Of a DNA stretch of 59,908 nt, positions 6,435-36,991 are shown one piece after another. Each line of letters starts with the position of its first letter. Position 1 is the stretch's first letter. Location of the stretch: positions 1 to 59,908 of IMG/VR virus record IMGVR_UViG_3300032323_002596. One strand, 5' to 3'. A program made the position numbers and the translations under genes. The notes under the pieces are model-generated. The model saw only the letters and a program-made list of their open reading frames with translations. It searched no databases and was not told where the DNA came from. This DNA is from a virus (taxonomy: Duplodnaviria; Caudoviricetes).

Positions 6435-7328
6435 TTATACCAATTTTTTCAATTGCTCTAAAAATGCCTTACTCTCGTCTTGAGGGAACATAGCAAAATC
6501 AACTAAATAAGTATGCGGCTTTTTGTCCGCTGGTATCTTGCAAATGAAGCCACCATTATTTGCCCAATAAGCTGATCCTTTCTTAGTTGTTGTATCAATC
6601 TTATTGTCAATCAATGCTTTTTTAACTATAAATGCAATTTCAACTTCTTTAGAACCAGCACTTTGCATAAACTTATTAGGTTGAGCTTCAGCGTAAAGTT
6701 CATAGTCGTTTCTTAATGCTTCCATAGATTTAGGCATACCTAAGTCATCTACAAACGAAATTCCCAAGAAATTACAATGTTTACGCATTTCTTCGTCAGA
6801 AGCTAATGAAGCGTACTTAATAGCCTCAACCTTAGCAACGCGTTTTGCCCTTTCAAGTTCAGCAGTTCTTTGTGGATTCCATTGGAAGAAAGTAACCTTT
6901 CTGGTTCCCTTTCTATTTGCATTATCTAAATTAGCATTACAAAGACTTAAAAACTCAAGTGCCTCAATATCATAATCAGCTACCCTTAAAACCCTACGGT
7001 CAAAAATTAAGCTTCTTCTGTTTTGTTCTACAAATGATTTTTCAAGTCCTTTTTGATCCTCTACCCAAATACTTGGATATCCTCTCAAAAGTCTAATTCT
7101 TTCCATTCTACCTTTCTTTTCATTCCAAACATCATCAATACCTTCCATATGGTATTTACCATTCTTCTTAGTATCTGATAATTTGAAAATCTTGAATGTA
7201 GTTCCGTTATTGGAAGCAGGGGCTAAATCAATGGCCTGAGCTGCTTCTTCATGTTGTCTTTGTACCTTTATTTCACCTTGTTGTGAAAAGTTAGCTTCCG
7301 CTAAACCTACTGCCTTTAAACGTGCCAT
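6435..7328 (-). CDS. Conserved protein downstream of major capsid gene
   Basis: 297 aa; occupies the post-MCP slot of crAss-like head modules; function not recognisable. Confidence 0.55.
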   Translation of the reverse strand: MARLKAVGLAEANFSQQGEIKVQRQHEEAAQAIDLAPASNNGTTFKIFKLSDTKKNGKYHMEGIDDVWNEKKGRMERIRLLRGYPSIWVEDQKGLEKSFVEQNRRSLIFDRRVLRVADYDIEALEFLSLCNANLDNANRKGTRKVTFFQWNPQRTAELERAKRVAKVEAIKYASLASDEEMRKHCNFLGISFVDDLGMPKSMEALRNDYELYAEAQPNKFMQSAGSKEVEIAFIVKKALIDNKIDTTTKKGSAYWANNGGFICKIPADKKPHTYLVDFAMFPQDESKAFLEQLKKLV

Positions 7329-8869: not shown

Positions 8870-10042
8870 TTACGAACTAAATGCCCACTCTGCTAGTCTC
8901 TGCCTTTCAGCTTCAACGCCACTAAGATCAGGTTTCGCTCCTTGAGGAGTTGCGGTTTGGTTGATGTTTATGTTCCCACTCTTTTTAAAATGAGCAAGCA
9001 ATCTTTGAGATGCCGCCTCATTTGCTATTTTTGAGAATATTTTATCACGGTTTTCTAACAGATATTTATCTGCCATAATTTGTTGAACATTTGGCTTACC
9101 ATCCTCGTTAAACCATCTGCCTTCAAAATAACTGTCCGTGTCAAAATCCTCTAATTGACTCTTCATTGCGCTTTTTTCTTCATCCCCCACATTAAATGAA
9201 ATCGGTATTTCAACATCCTCGTCTTTTACCGATACACTAAATCCGTTGAATGATTTAAAATCAGAGTCAAGTGTTTTTTCATAATTTGATCTAGCATATT
9301 GCATCATTTCATATTCTTCTTGAAATTGAGCTTGTCTGCCTGCCTCATTATAAATATCTGGTAATTGAATTTCACTTTTCAATTTTGCCAATTCAGATCT
9401 AGTTGTTTTAGCCTCAATCATCAACTTCCTTTCGGTATAGTCAACTTGAGCCTCCCAATTCTTTACCTTGTTAGCATAATCTTCATCAGTTTCATCAAAT
9501 CCCTGTTCTGGTTTTAAAGGTACGAAAAATTTATCATAAAATAAAAGTTCCACCTCTTCTTCATTTAACTCCTTGTGTTTTTGTCTAAGATTTTCTTTTA
9601 CAACTTCAATGGCTAATTCAGTATCTAATTCAGCAGTAGTCAATCTTTCTAGTTTTTTCTGCTGATTTAAAACTTGATACACATCGTCTGCTTTGCCTTC
9701 TTTAATTGCATCAAACAATGTTTTACTTACATCGTCCTTAAACTCAAAACTAGGCTCTTCTTTAAGCCTTCTAAATTGATTTTCAGCCTCTTCAACGCTT
9801 TCAAAGCCAAACCTTTCTCTTACAAATTCATTTGGATCAAATGACTGAGAGCTGTTTTGTTGCTCTGATTGTTCCGGTTGCTGTTCCGGTTGAGCCGTAA
9901 CTTGTTCGTTACTTGACTCATTTGTAGCAGTAGGGGTTACATCTACCGCTGTTTGTTGTTGTAACACAACATCTTCATCCCCGAAAGGATTGTAACCTTC
10001 TGCCAGCGTAATTGGTGCTGACATGTCTGTATTCTCTGGCAT
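8870..10042 (-). CDS. Putative capsid scaffolding protein
   Basis: 390 aa, very acidic and coiled-coil-like, directly upstream of MCP. Confidence 0.65.
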   Translation of the reverse strand: MPENTDMSAPITLAEGYNPFGDEDVVLQQQTAVDVTPTATNESSNEQVTAQPEQQPEQSEQQNSSQSFDPNEFVRERFGFESVEEAENQFRRLKEEPSFEFKDDVSKTLFDAIKEGKADDVYQVLNQQKKLERLTTAELDTELAIEVVKENLRQKHKELNEEEVELLFYDKFFVPLKPEQGFDETDEDYANKVKNWEAQVDYTERKLMIEAKTTRSELAKLKSEIQLPDIYNEAGRQAQFQEEYEMMQYARSNYEKTLDSDFKSFNGFSVSVKDEDVEIPISFNVGDEEKSAMKSQLEDFDTDSYFEGRWFNEDGKPNVQQIMADKYLLENRDKIFSKIANEAASQRLLAHFKKSGNININQTATPQGAKPDLSGVEAERQRLAEWAFSS

Positions 10043-16722: not shown

Positions 16723-16740
16723 AATTTAATTAATTTAATT

Positions 16741-16800
16741 CAAAGGTAAGGATTTTATTAACTTAATCAATTTTAAATTGCATAAAATATCTTATATTTG
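16741..16800. promoter_or_regulatory. Divergent pair of Bacteroidota -7 promoters
   Basis: TACCTTTG on minus (16741-16748) toward the packaging operon; TATATTTG on plus (16793-16800) toward the paralog pair. Confidence 0.65.
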
Positions 16801-21447: not shown

Positions 21448-21541
21448 AAATAATTTGATTGAAGCACAAAGTAAAGAATAATATTTTTAATTACAAAATT
21501 TATTTTTCCATAAATTTATTTTGTTATTTAATTAAATTAAT

Positions 21542-22127: not shown

Positions 22128-22328
22128 ATGGAGCCATACCAAACAAAAGCAATAAAAATATACTTAAACTTTTTTTTAAAAGACAGAATAACTGATTTTG
22201 AAAATAGAATAATAAAAGCAAAAAATGATGCTATATCGCATGCTCAAAATCAAATAGAATTATATAAAAACAATTCTGAAGAAATATTTTATTGGTCAAA
22301 TGTAAAAAACGCAATTGAAAAAATATGA
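22128..22328 (+). CDS. Hypothetical protein
   Basis: 66 aa; ATGA overlap with ninG. Confidence 0.6.
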   Translation: MEPYQTKAIKIYLNFFLKDRITDFENRIIKAKNDAISHAQNQIELYKNNSEEIFYWSNVKNAIEKI

Positions 22329-22864
22329 GAAATAGCACAATAATAGTTAAGAAAAAGCGTTGTATAAATTGTGGTAATATTGATTACCATTTTTCAAAAA
22401 AGATGTGTAAGCAATGCGCTACCATTGCATCAACACAAAAAAGGATGGATGAATTTGAAGATGATTCAGAAAGCTTTAATAATTTAGTTCAGGATTTAGA
22501 TCACGTATTTAGCCAGTATATTAGAAATAAACATGCCGATAAAAGCGGAATAGTAGAATGTTATACTTGTGGAAATAAGCATACTGTTTCTGAAATACAA
22601 TGCGGACATTTTATGGGCAGGTCAAATTTGGGCACAAGATGGATGGAGTCAAATTGTAAACCACAATGTATGGAATGTAATTATTTCAAAACAGGAAACA
22701 TTGAAGAGTTTGAAAATAAACTACACGAAGAAAATGGAGCTTTGGTAGAATATTTAAGAGAAACAGCTAGACAACCAACAAGGCCAACAAGAGAAGAATT
22801 AAAAGCTTTGATCTTAGAATATAGGGCTAAACTTATTTTAGTTAAAAAGAAATTTATAAAGTAG
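22325..22864 (+). CDS. ninG: NinG/Rap-like recombination endonuclease
   Basis: LDHVFSQYIR…CYTCG…QCGHFMGRS…RW…NCKPQCMECN. Confidence 0.8.
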   Translation: MRNSTIIVKKKRCINCGNIDYHFSKKMCKQCATIASTQKRMDEFEDDSESFNNLVQDLDHVFSQYIRNKHADKSGIVECYTCGNKHTVSEIQCGHFMGRSNLGTRWMESNCKPQCMECNYFKTGNIEEFENKLHEENGALVEYLRETARQPTRPTREELKALILEYRAKLILVKKKFIK

Positions 22865-22890
22865 GTTGTCGGTTTTTTATAGTAAATATG

Positions 22891-22915
22891 CCCCTGCATT
22901 TCTATGCGGGGGTTT
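22891..22915 (+). terminator. Stem-loop/terminator after ninG
   Basis: CCCCTGCAT-TTCT-ATGCGGGGG followed by TTT. Confidence 0.6.
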
Positions 22916-22917
22916 AT

Positions 22918-22977
22918 AAAAAAAGAGCCCCTCGTAGAAACGAAGGGCGTGATTAAACCGTTAACACTTGCTATATG
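22918..22977 (-). ncRNA. Candidate ~55-60 nt trans-antisense sRNA
   Basis: TATATTTG promoter (22983-22990, minus), about 30 nt with no ORF, then GCCCTTCGT-TTCT-ACGAGGGGC-TC-T7; body complementary to 23634-23653 and 23276-23286. Confidence 0.6.
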
Positions 22978-23057
22978 AGATGCAAATATACAAAAATTAA
23001 TTAAATTTATTTTTTTAATTAAATTAATTAAATTAATTTTACAAAAAAATTTAAAAA

Positions 23058-23255
23058 ATGGCAAGAAACATTAGTCCAGATTCGGTTTCAAGTAAGGTTG
23101 CTGAATTAACATTAGGAGAAAATATTAGATTAAATAATCCATATACATCAGTTATGGTTATGGTATCAAATTTAAAAAAGAAAGAAGCACACAAAGATAA
23201 GCTGTTTAAAATTAAACACGCGGACGGTGTTACCGTTGTATCACGAATTAAATAA
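23058..23255 (+). CDS. Hypothetical small protein (possible DNA-binding)
   Basis: 65 aa, A-rich initiation region, first gene of the recombination operon. Confidence 0.65.
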   Translation: MARNISPDSVSSKVAELTLGENIRLNNPYTSVMVMVSNLKKKEAHKDKLFKIKHADGVTVVSRIK

Positions 23256-23265
23256 ACCAACATAT

Positions 23266-23643
23266 ATGCACATCCAAACCGTTAACTACACTAGAACATT
23301 TAATTTAGGTAACTATTCATCTGAAAAGATTGGCGTTGAGTTTGCCCTCAATGAAGGTGAGTCAGCCAATAAAGCTCTTGACCACGCAAGAGAGCTAGTA
23401 GAAGAATATCACAATAAAAATGTAGCTAGACAAAAAGAACTTGCTGAGTATTTAGGTGTTAATTATGATGACATACTTACTGAAGAAGTAATTCCTACTC
23501 AGTCAAAAAAGACTTTAGCTGAAAAAACCAAAGAGTTTATTGACTCCTGTAAAACAAAAGAAGAGTTAAAGGCTTGGGAATTGATGAGTAAAAGTAATCC
23601 GGAATTACTAATGCACTACAATAATAAAATGAAAACACTTTAA
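23266..23643 (+). CDS. Hypothetical protein, 125 aa, exonuclease-associated
   Basis: Restarted at ATG 23266 (MHIQTVNYTRTFNLGNYSSEKIGVE). Confidence 0.7.
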   Translation: MHIQTVNYTRTFNLGNYSSEKIGVEFALNEGESANKALDHARELVEEYHNKNVARQKELAEYLGVNYDDILTEEVIPTQSKKTLAEKTKEFIDSCKTKEELKAWELMSKSNPELLMHYNNKMKTL

Positions 23644-23645
23644 CT

Positions 23646-24368
23646 ATGAGATGGAATGAAACACACATCAGAGCAAGCTCTGTAGGTTATTTAATGACCG
23701 AACCTCAATCAAAAGCTGATAAAGAAGCTGGATTGTTATCTAAAACGGCTCAAAAGCATTTATTAGATGTTTATATAGCCGAAAAGTATGGTCGCAGAAA
23801 AGACATACAAACCAAGCAAATGAAAAAGGGTATAGAAGTAGAGCAAGATTCAATTGATTTACTTTCTATGTACTTAAAAATGCCATTTAGTAAGAATGAC
23901 CAAAGATTTACAAATGATTTTATTACTGGTTTTCCTGATATTATTGATAATGACAGAATAATTGATATTAAATCAAGTTATGATCTTTGGACGTTTATTG
24001 GCAATATACCAGATAAGTTAGATAGTTTATACTATTGGCAAATGCAATCTTACATGTGGTTGACAAATACAAAAAGTGCTGTAATTGCTTATTGTTTAGT
24101 AAATACTCCTGAAAGTATCATAGAGCAAGAGAAGTATTACATGCTTAAAAAGATGGATGTAGCCACTGAAGAAAATCCAGAGTATGTAAAAGAGGCAATG
24201 AAGATTGAATTTAACATGTCTTTTGATGATATTTCAATAGAAGAAAGAGTACTTATGTTTAAAGTTGGTAGAAATGAAGATGATATACTGCGCATCCAGC
24301 AGAAAGTAGAAAGAGCAAGAGAGTTTTTAAGAGAATTGGAAGAAACACATTTAAACTTTAATAAGTAA
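23646..24368 (+). CDS. YqaJ/lambda-exonuclease family protein
   Basis: IRASSVGYLM, KGIEVE, TGFPD…IIDIKSS (PD-D/ExK), YYWQMQSYMW. Confidence 0.85.
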   Translation: MRWNETHIRASSVGYLMTEPQSKADKEAGLLSKTAQKHLLDVYIAEKYGRRKDIQTKQMKKGIEVEQDSIDLLSMYLKMPFSKNDQRFTNDFITGFPDIIDNDRIIDIKSSYDLWTFIGNIPDKLDSLYYWQMQSYMWLTNTKSAVIAYCLVNTPESIIEQEKYYMLKKMDVATEENPEYVKEAMKIEFNMSFDDISIEERVLMFKVGRNEDDILRIQQKVERAREFLRELEETHLNFNK

Positions 24369-24738: not shown

Positions 24739-25029
24739 ATGGCAAAGAAAAAAGCAAATATTCCTGAAGATAAACAAGCATATACAGAAGGATGTGATTT
24801 TTGTATGCAATTTGACTATGATGACATTCATGTAATTGGAGCAAGTCCAGATGAGCACGGTGCAATTGAATTAATAATTAAGGCTTACCAAGATGCCGGA
24901 GTTACATTTGTATGCCCAAATACTGGTAAAAAATTAAGGATATTTGCTAGGCCATTAACAGATGCTGGCAGAGCTATTTTAGATCCTAGTCAATTACCTG
25001 GAGGTAACGAGGATATTAAGGAAATTTAA
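24739..25029 (+). CDS. Hypothetical protein
   Basis: 96 aa; CDFC and CP motifs. Confidence 0.7.
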   Translation: MAKKKANIPEDKQAYTEGCDFCMQFDYDDIHVIGASPDEHGAIELIIKAYQDAGVTFVCPNTGKKLRIFARPLTDAGRAILDPSQLPGGNEDIKEI

Positions 25030-29836: not shown

Positions 29837-30072
29837 ACCTCGCCCAAGAATCCGCTTTAGTGAGTATTATATACACACAATCTTTGTATTTAACATAATA
29901 TTAATTATAAGCTTTAGCTTATTTACAAATACTAGCAATCCCTAAAATTTAGTTAACTAAATTTTAGGGATTGCTAGTATTTGTAAATAAGCTAAAGCTT
30001 ATAATTAATATTATGTTAAATACAAAGATTGTGTGTATATAATACTCACTAAAGCGGATTCTTGGGCGAGGT

Positions 30073-36851: not shown

Positions 36852-36931
36852 TTTTTAAATTTTTTTGTAAAATTAATTTAATTAATTTAATTAAAAAAAT
36901 AAATTTAATTAATTTTTGTATATTTGCATCT

Positions 36932-36991
36932 CATATAGCAAGTGTTAACGGTTTAATCACGCCCTTCGTTTCTACGAGGGGCTCTTTTTTT
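36932..36991 (+). ncRNA. Candidate antisense sRNA (mirror copy)
   Basis: Mirror of 22918..22977. Confidence 0.6.

Follow-up and report, generated by a model that had tools for sequence, protein, structure and literature searches.

A probable antisense RNA mini-gene facing the exonuclease operon of a lake phage

The short intergenic region between a NinG/Rap gene and an exonuclease operon in the virus record IMGVR_UViG_3300032323_002596 raises the question of whether it encodes a regulatory RNA and, if so, on which messages that RNA would act. The window referred to below is the whole stretch of DNA that was analysed, 59,908 bases in length. An initial annotation, made from the sequence alone, had placed on the minus strand at 22918-22990 a stand-alone small RNA (sRNA) gene antisense to the start regions of two genes, p125 and the exonuclease gene. 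Our analysis indicates that the element probably represents a genuine trans-acting antisense sRNA that belongs to a new family, and we assign a probability of roughly 0.6 to the reading in which one polycistronic mRNA is masked by it at two places, nucleotides +11 to +21 of p125 and the exonuclease leader with its AUG. The interpretation put forward in the initial annotation appears to be partly supported, strongly by comparison of related phages and not by the energetics of pairing in the single genome.

A compact promoter-to-terminator unit

The predicted sRNA unit lies within the intergenic region 22865-23057 that separates NinG/Rap from p65, the first gene of the operon, and it overlaps no gene, so that it is not a cis-antisense RNA of the OOP or sar type. 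From left to right the region carries the NinG terminator, a minus-strand terminator, a body of 34 nt, a -7 promoter box, an AT-rich block of 43 bp and a -7-like box on the plus strand, after which p65 starts. The minus-strand box, TATATTTG (22983-22990), fits the Bacteroidota-type consensus TAnnTTTG and reads CAAATATA on the plus strand; it is followed on the minus strand by CATCTCATATAGCAAGTGTTAACGGTTTAATCAC. No TTTG occurs at the -33 distance upstream of the box, a region that is occupied by the AT-rich block. In Flavobacterium psychrophilum the -7 box is located at -12 to -5 relative to the transcription start (PMC9723704) and, by this rule, the RNA would begin at about 22978 (22976-22980) and have a predicted length of some 57-62 nt.

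The body that would follow (22949-22978, minus strand) shows little structure when folded and is predicted to be single stranded, and it contains no open reading frame (ORF) with a start codon that exceeds 4 codons. It leads into an intrinsic terminator hairpin (22927-22948, minus strand), supported by both a terminator scan and folding, with 9 pairs of which 6 are G-C, a loop of 4 nt (UUCU) and the tail TCTTTTTTTA, the U-tract itself being UCUUUUUUU (22918-22926). The hairpin alone was estimated at -16.4 kcal/mol, and the fold of the 73-nt minus strand yielded z = -4.35, none of 200 shuffles being equally stable. Five terminator-like sites were present in the scanned region of 4.2 kb against 1.2 +/- 1.1 in shuffled sequence. 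The perfect minus-strand -7 promoter, the ORF-free body and the strong terminator of the initial annotation were thus recovered exactly.

Two coding alternatives were tried and rejected. An ORF of 127 amino acids starting with TTG (22681-23064, minus strand) spans two terminators and a stretch that is unconserved in relatives, while a plus-strand mini-ORF across the -7 box (MRCKYTKIN) shows no synonymous variation in its K and Y codons among distinct homologues and is out of frame in one relative, L060. No Rfam covariance model reached its gathering threshold, the best over the element being RprA with 26.9 bits against a required 70 (E 4.5).

Relatives were gathered by a search with the exonuclease protein, from which 80 viral loci (given numbers with the prefix L) were retained out of 172 hits, at 73-100% identity. 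A blastn search with 22910-22995 detected homologues in 30 of the 80 loci, representing 25 distinct sequences including the window's own. CAAATATA is kept in 25 of these 25, in a blastn collection made without this motif, and it is gone where the module is gone. Conservation sets in exactly at the A-run that corresponds on the plus strand to the terminator U-tract, and the sequence farther left defies alignment among relatives. The conserved part comprises the hairpin, the core AAACCGTTAACACTT, some 10 nt of variable sequence and the invariant CAAATATA, and it carries on into the AT-rich block. Of the 75 loci that could be assessed by motif search, 36 contain the module and 39 do not, the other five of the 80 being too short. 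In loci without it, the NinG stop codon or terminator directly adjoins the AT-rich block, and these loci have no minus-strand -7 box either. This clean presence or absence, with loss of the -7 box as well, identifies the module as a discrete accessory unit, and the stand-alone non-coding unit of about 55-60 nt initially proposed is borne out both by its anatomy and by its conservation as a unit. A mobile insert with a target-site duplication was also considered and discarded, because the part that is present or absent stops at the -7 box and not at a second repeat.

A distance of 43 bp separates the two divergent -7 boxes, and the module is dispensable in those 39 relatives. With the ordinary pairing statistics of the single genome (see below), these features would fit a by-product of a bidirectional AT-rich promoter, in which the terminator merely shields NinG from antisense transcription and the RNA itself is functionless. 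We find this distinctly doubtful: an insulating spacer should vary, yet the core AAACCGTTAACACTT shows no variation across the main sRNA clade (13 distinct loci, with L019 as the exception), a clade whose p65 proteins are 80-98% identical to that of the window. Moreover, a spacer would not be expected to change in step with two start regions at distances of 300-700 bp, and the module-less relatives also lack the minus-strand -7 box.

The terminator stems carry compensatory differences among relatives, including GCCC/GGGC, GGAGG/CCUCC and GCUCC/GGAGC pairings and an inner C-G changed to A-U. All 17 aligned variants form a hairpin of 9-10 bp followed by a U-tract, with energies of -13.1 to -16.4 kcal/mol in per-sequence folds; these were chosen because a 3-nt indel in the stem blurred the pair counts that RNAalifold produced from a MAFFT alignment. 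The compensatory changes indicate an RNA structure, and they bear on another possibility, that the locus functions at the DNA level, either through repeats that bind a phage protein or with the AT-rich block as an origin that is activated or primed by a short transcript, a role once proposed for the oop RNA of lambda. The AT-rich repeat block (22991-23033, with TTAATTAAAT repeats, between the two divergent promoters) is extremely conserved, being nearly invariant in relatives with or without the sRNA module; primase/helicase and replication-initiator genes are located nearby, and direct repeats would suit protein binding just as well. We nevertheless judge a DNA-level function to be very unlikely, since, in addition to the stem changes, two different repeat sequences are fused in one promoter-to-terminator unit, unlike a single protein site, and the AT block persists without the module.

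Co-variation of the RNA body with two start regions

Two overlapping segments of the RNA body are complementary to the operon. The template of the first, Seed A (22955-22965, minus strand), matches 11 of 11 positions in codons 4-7 of p125, at nucleotides +11 to +21 of the ORF (target site 1, 23276-23286). The template of the second, Seed B (22963-22982, minus strand), matches at 16 of 20 positions, without gaps, a stretch that comprises the last codons of p125, a 2-nt spacer and the exonuclease start (target site 2, 23634-23653, with ATG at 23646). Both matches are exactly those first annotated. Seed B consists of 7 matched nucleotides, a 4-nt mismatch and 9 matched nucleotides, about five of the nine lying inside the RNA given a start at 22978. 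The caveat of the initial annotation that the true start might trim a few 5' pairs was justified, the start at about 22978 removing the four outermost (PMC9723704). With the 5' body predicted to be unstructured, the accessible seed retains complementarity to the translation start regions over 11 nt for p125 and 7+5 nt for the exonuclease gene.

Among the relatives, the complementarity to codons 4-7 of p125 and to the exonuclease start is kept, or is re-created when either partner changes, as would be expected from the annotated pairing. Seed A co-varies with p125 in L012, where G is changed to A in the sRNA and p125 alike (AACCATTAAC), in L054-57, where GTTAAC is changed to GTAAA in both (ACCGTAAA), in L083/L100, where the p125 codons AAC TAC are replaced by AGT TAT and the replacement is mirrored in the sRNA, and also in L053 and L131. 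Changes in the exonuclease leader are mirrored by Seed B in a partly different set of lineages. Thus, AACACTT is altered to AAATCT (TAAATCT) in both partners of L054-57; TTTTAACC is common to sRNA and target in L053/59; AACCAAA and AACACTG are each shared by sRNA and exonuclease leader, in L060 and L017 respectively; a C-to-T change before the exonuclease ATG of L083/L100 is found in the sRNA as well; and in the large L058 clade the sRNA carries CTTTAACTATG opposite the exonuclease start CTTTATAACTATG. In L083/L100/L131 and the L058 clade the anti-AUG sequence is located 9-14 nt from the -7 box and, therefore, falls inside the RNA whatever its exact start.

Significance was assessed by permutation tests in which the pairing of each sRNA type with its own targets was compared with its pairing with the targets of other types; these type-level tests replaced a first test over 27 loci that was confounded by relatedness. 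For 13 types, duplex energies gave p = 8e-4 for the exonuclease site and p = 1e-5 for the p125 site, while sense-strand and reversed-sRNA controls ranged over p = 0.09-0.83. Alignment scores for 11 types yielded 0.019 (exonuclease site), 0.002 (p125 site) and 5e-4 (sum), with an opposite-strand control that was not significant and, when the main clade was omitted, values of 0.052, 0.006 and 0.003, respectively. After a third collection scan the set was enlarged to 93 loci with 53 distinct triplets in 11 clusters, for which duplex energy gave 2e-4 (exonuclease) and 2e-5 (p125), and alignment score 5e-3 and 3e-3. The co-variation of sRNA and targets that had been suggested as a check is therefore present: cognate pairs outperform non-cognate pairs over 11-13 types, at p of about 1e-5 to 5e-3 by duplex energy and by enlarged-set alignment score. 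Chance resemblance of an AT-rich spacer to two nearby start regions has, in our estimation, an exceedingly low probability; matches of 10-12 nt do arise by chance in such AT-rich DNA, but here the conservation is position specific and the co-variation extends over 11-13 sRNA types with orientation controls.

Pairing within the single genome was assessed by comparing a 30-nt seed, taken from the predicted 5' end, with the 44 start regions (-30 to +25), using 200 dinucleotide-preserving shuffles. The p125 site ranked first of the 44 with a duplex of -15.4 kcal/mol that includes the perfect 11-nt match; 3 of the 200 shuffles gave an exact complement of at least 11 nt to one or another of these regions. 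The exact 11-mer occurs only at its two sites, in the unique half of the window (see below) as well as in a record of 58,309 bases whose encoded exonuclease is identical. By itself, neither the TAnnTTTG motif nor the 16/20 match amounts to more than chance; the single-genome pairing is weak evidence, and the window alone is insufficient for the sRNA claim.

A number of observations count against the proposed pairing. The initial annotation had named pairing no better than that of shuffled AT-rich controls as a ground for abandoning it, and this is in part what emerged: in this genome alone the energy is no better, the best start-region energy being equalled by 44% of the 200 shuffled seeds, while the exonuclease site, at -11.5 kcal/mol, falls outside the best eight of the 44 start regions and is equalled by 25 of the 200. 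Stronger non-self duplexes occur elsewhere when both strands are scanned, for example at 8991-9050 and 24931-24990, and the 5' end of the RNA rests on a promoter rule from another species. Three small lake metatranscriptome runs that share the sample or the study yielded no reads over 22700-23800, a result that carries no information on expression. Among relatives, 39 of 75 dispense with the module altogether. An unconstrained RNAduplex search over the operon, which was noisy and driven in part by stem-base nucleotides retained in the seed, had its best site at either start region in only 9 of the 27 distinct loci. Pairing with p125 is poor in the L058 clade, L060 and L140; L015 combines a window-type sRNA with a different second exonuclease codon; and L023/24/27 show a single position of disagreement between the sRNA and the exonuclease leader. 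Of 30 distinct bodies, 23 had a direct match longer than their longest inverted match, 3 were tied and 4 showed the opposite, these being related bodies and the margins small. Finally, two controls of the enlarged set were marginal, namely the sense-strand control for the sum of both sites by duplex energy (p = 0.016) and the opposite-strand control for the p125 site by alignment score (p = 0.026), probably because GTTAAC is its own reverse complement, and all p-values are approximate given that the sRNA types are related sequences.

Some of these points could also be accommodated by a real RNA with its main targets elsewhere, whether among host mRNAs, in the genome half outside the window or in a co-infecting phage; its match to p125 and to the exonuclease gene would then be secondary. 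Other sites in the window pair at least equally by energy, and the window covers only half of a genome of about 58-69 kb. We consider this rather improbable, as the seed tracks changes at exactly the two sites in several independent lineages, and a third copy of the exact 11-mer is absent from the record of 58,309 bases mentioned above. As regards the two sites, that in p125 appears the better supported, whereas the exonuclease site is statistically weaker and more persistent across clades.

Masking of both p125 and the exonuclease start remains our preferred reading. In the mechanism that we infer, a sigma-A type promoter (-7 box 22990-22983, minus strand), which diverges from that of the p65-p125-exonuclease operon on the other side of the AT-rich block, would drive synthesis, from the predicted 5' end, of an RNA of about 57-62 nt with an unstructured 5' part of some 30 nt, ending at the intrinsic terminator 22948-22918. 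The middle of the 5' part would pair with nucleotides +11 to +21 of p125 and the 5' end with the exonuclease leader and AUG, the two sites following each other on one polycistronic mRNA just as they do in the sRNA template. Repression would most likely result from pairing that keeps the 30S subunit off start regions lacking Shine-Dalgarno (SD) sites; decay of the mRNA may also be accelerated, and synthesis of p125 and the exonuclease would be lowered.

The operon, the phage and its host

The NinG/Rap gene (22325-22864, plus strand) adjoins the intergenic region and is followed by a plus-strand terminator hairpin (22891-22912) that faces the sRNA terminator. The loop UUUCUA and an inner stem of C-G/G-C type are common to the terminators on both strands (22899-22904, plus; 22935-22940, minus) and to those of relatives, and this shared loop looks like a terminator signature of the whole group. 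It was rejected as an sRNA-specific protein site, since the same loop is present in the plus-strand NinG terminator and in other terminators of the group.

On the other side, the operon is preceded by the -7-like box TAATTTTA (23034-23041, plus strand), which matches at 7 of 8 positions and is the perfect TAATTTTG in divergent relatives. The AT-rich block upstream of p65 has stayed nearly invariant although the proteins of the relatives have diverged to 55-98% identity, and TTAATTAAAT-type repeats recur at 21526-21541 and 16724-16741, being located just upstream of another -7 box and in a 5' leader; the AT-rich repeats may represent an operator, an UP element or an origin.

p65 (23058-23255, plus strand) was detected by tblastn in 77 of the 80 loci, in 76 of them at 55-98% identity across residues 1-65 (the gene of L018 being cut), while the contigs of L005 and L011 end short of it. 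This conservation renders an overlapping ORF of 70 amino acids on the minus strand (23051-23263) spurious. p125 (23266-23643, plus strand) carries target site 1 and, from the gap of 2 nt between the genes, appears to be translationally coupled to the exonuclease gene. It is well conserved among the phages, with 30 invariant columns across 25 sequences, and searches of Pfam, PHROGs, NCBIfam and the ESM Atlas and a profile search of the PDB gave nothing usable, the best match being EXD1 (E 4.5e-4 over about 60 residues); in PHROGs it matched only the unnamed phrog_5189, of unknown function (E 4.4e-4). The term recombination operon, used in the initial annotation, holds for the exonuclease, which is recognisable as phrog_5715 (E 1.2e-47), and finds no backing in p65, p125 and the two proteins encoded downstream of the exonuclease, for which no family was matched. 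Within a gene for 96 amino acids in the same operon, 24947-24974 (plus strand) constitutes a possible third pairing site, rich in G-U pairs, at -19.4 to -21.7 kcal/mol.

The window is a perfect palindrome, showing 0 mismatches to its own reverse complement around a centre at 29954/29955, and hence only bases 1-29,954 are unique and every feature is mirrored at 59,909 minus its position. The copy of the whole sRNA element at 36919-36991 (plus strand) is a product of this palindrome and not an independent copy. IMG/VR classifies the record as a virus with inverted terminal repeats. Contigs of close relatives span 58-69 kb, and the window most likely consists of about half of a phage genome fused to its own reverse complement, an assembly artefact; the inverted-terminal-repeat label and the completeness estimate of 89% are consequently misleading. 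The unique half encodes an open-ended ORF of at least 1,322 amino acids, structural proteins, a portal and the large terminase, as well as single-stranded DNA-binding protein (SSB), primase/helicase, a replication initiator, NinG/Rap, exonuclease and RusA.

A member of the Bacteroidota is the likely host of this lake phage, judging by sequence signals. SD-like cores precede only 2 of 44 genes, the 20 nt upstream of genes have an A content of 53%, and the 29,954 unique bases contain 40 TAnnTTTG motifs, 16 of these within the 19% of bases that are intergenic and several preceding operons. Relatives of the primase were found on eight contigs of metagenome-assembled genomes (MAGs), four of them labelled Bacteroidota (Bacteroides, Flavobacterium, Chitinophagales and Segetibacter) and the rest in bins of Taylorbacteria, Saccharibacteria and Clostridia and one unnamed bin. 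L141, L146 and L147, from the Taylorbacteria, Saccharibacteria and Clostridia MAGs and with a close primase relative, are probably mis-binned phage contigs. No DNA similarity to isolated phages was found; the exonuclease protein gave only distant matches to them, below 60% identity, including phages of Nonlabens, Leeuwenhoekiella, Riemerella and Flavobacterium and also of Acinetobacter and Pasteurellaceae. An exact match to the 44-nt AT-rich block was absent from the genome contigs searched, and no host or prophage was identified by that route.

Known antisense RNAs and a wider family of mini-genes

The c4 antisense RNA of phages P1 and P7 is cut from a longer transcript of the operon that is under its control, and it controls an antirepressor. 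It is 77 nt in length and, as predicted for the element described here, it is phage encoded and acts in trans on the phage's own mRNA near the ribosome-binding region, blocking translation; its pairing segments and targets also differ together between related phages, as in P1/P7 heteroimmunity (PMC12197685). Unlike c4, with which it shares no relationship of sequence or structure, the present element matches no Rfam family at threshold, has a stand-alone divergent promoter and a terminator, is predicted to target p125 and the exonuclease gene, and would operate in a host phylum without SD sites. The sar RNA of P22 and the OOP RNA of lambda are transcribed opposite their target genes and are, hence, fully complementary to them. 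They are RNAs of 68-77 nt with their own promoter and terminator that repress a phage gene by base pairing, and the present element resembles them as a short phage RNA unit with a predicted promoter and terminator of its own (PMC12197685). It differs in that it does not overlap its targets and would pair through segments of 11 nt and 7+5 nt.

A further parallel is provided by GibS of Bacteroides thetaiotaomicron, from a genus without Hfq and ProQ, in which an unstructured 5' part pairs across start codons; the trans-encoded, unstructured 5' seed directed at start regions of SD-less mRNAs is a feature that we predict here as well (PMC7366714). GibS is chromosomal, about 145 nt long, with a seed of 30-50 nt and metabolic targets (PMC7366714), whereas the present element is phage borne, about 60 nt long, with short seeds, targets in the neighbouring operon and no Rfam homology. 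By analogy, the element would be akin to c4 and GibS in mode of action while being a member of neither family.

To our knowledge, phage-encoded base-pairing RNAs are known almost solely from phages of Proteobacteria and Firmicutes. A full-text literature search, whose coverage excluded supplements and subscription journals, revealed no paper on sRNAs of Flavobacterium or Bacteroidetes phages, and terms beginning with Bacteroid or Flavobacter are absent from a 2025 review of phage sRNAs (PMC12197685).

A covariance model built from the 17 variants detected one copy in the window and its mirror (84.7 bits) and also matched, in three relatives, a mini-gene at a second site, the far end of the operon, at L080:4641-4708 (minus), L067:4908-4984 (minus) and L140:1430-1495 (plus). 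These paralogous units consist of a -7 box, 5 nt, CATA..., a body and a terminator, and the window has no such unit at the far end of its operon. A pattern scan recovered the same promoter-to-terminator architecture in unrelated contexts in L099/L123, the L112 group, L116, L136, L134 and L107, together with about eight chance matches that lacked a hairpin.

Mini-genes of about 50-60 nt with other seeds were seen in unrelated contexts in L099, L123, L112, L113, L135, L139, L128, L116, L136 and L107. That of L128 shows a 12-nt match, a 4-nt mismatch and TATG to a site 113 nt away that adjoins an ATG. In L134 a perfect direct repeat of 16 nt (6546-6561 and 6814-6829) links the body of the mini-gene to the bases just before the ATG at 6562; a Rep-like ORF of 343 amino acids is open across this mini-gene, and the gene model is ambiguous.

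On a broader and more speculative proposal, which we regard as rather unlikely, the element would be one of a modular family of sRNA mini-genes in freshwater Bacteroidota phages. A constant scaffold of promoter and terminator would carry an exchangeable seed, would occupy at least two genomic positions and would recur in unrelated contexts. The seeds would evolve jointly with the 5' ends of phage genes and so determine specificity among related phages, through heteroimmunity or interference on co-infection as for c4 of P1/P7, one RNA perhaps bridging two sites of a single mRNA.

How sRNAs control translation in a phylum that lacks Shine-Dalgarno sites, Hfq and ProQ is considered an open question (PMC7366714). 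The present finding suggests that a phage exonuclease operon is under post-transcriptional control, and the family provides a natural series of seed and target variants that are, in effect, ready-made compensatory mutants for tests of the mechanism.

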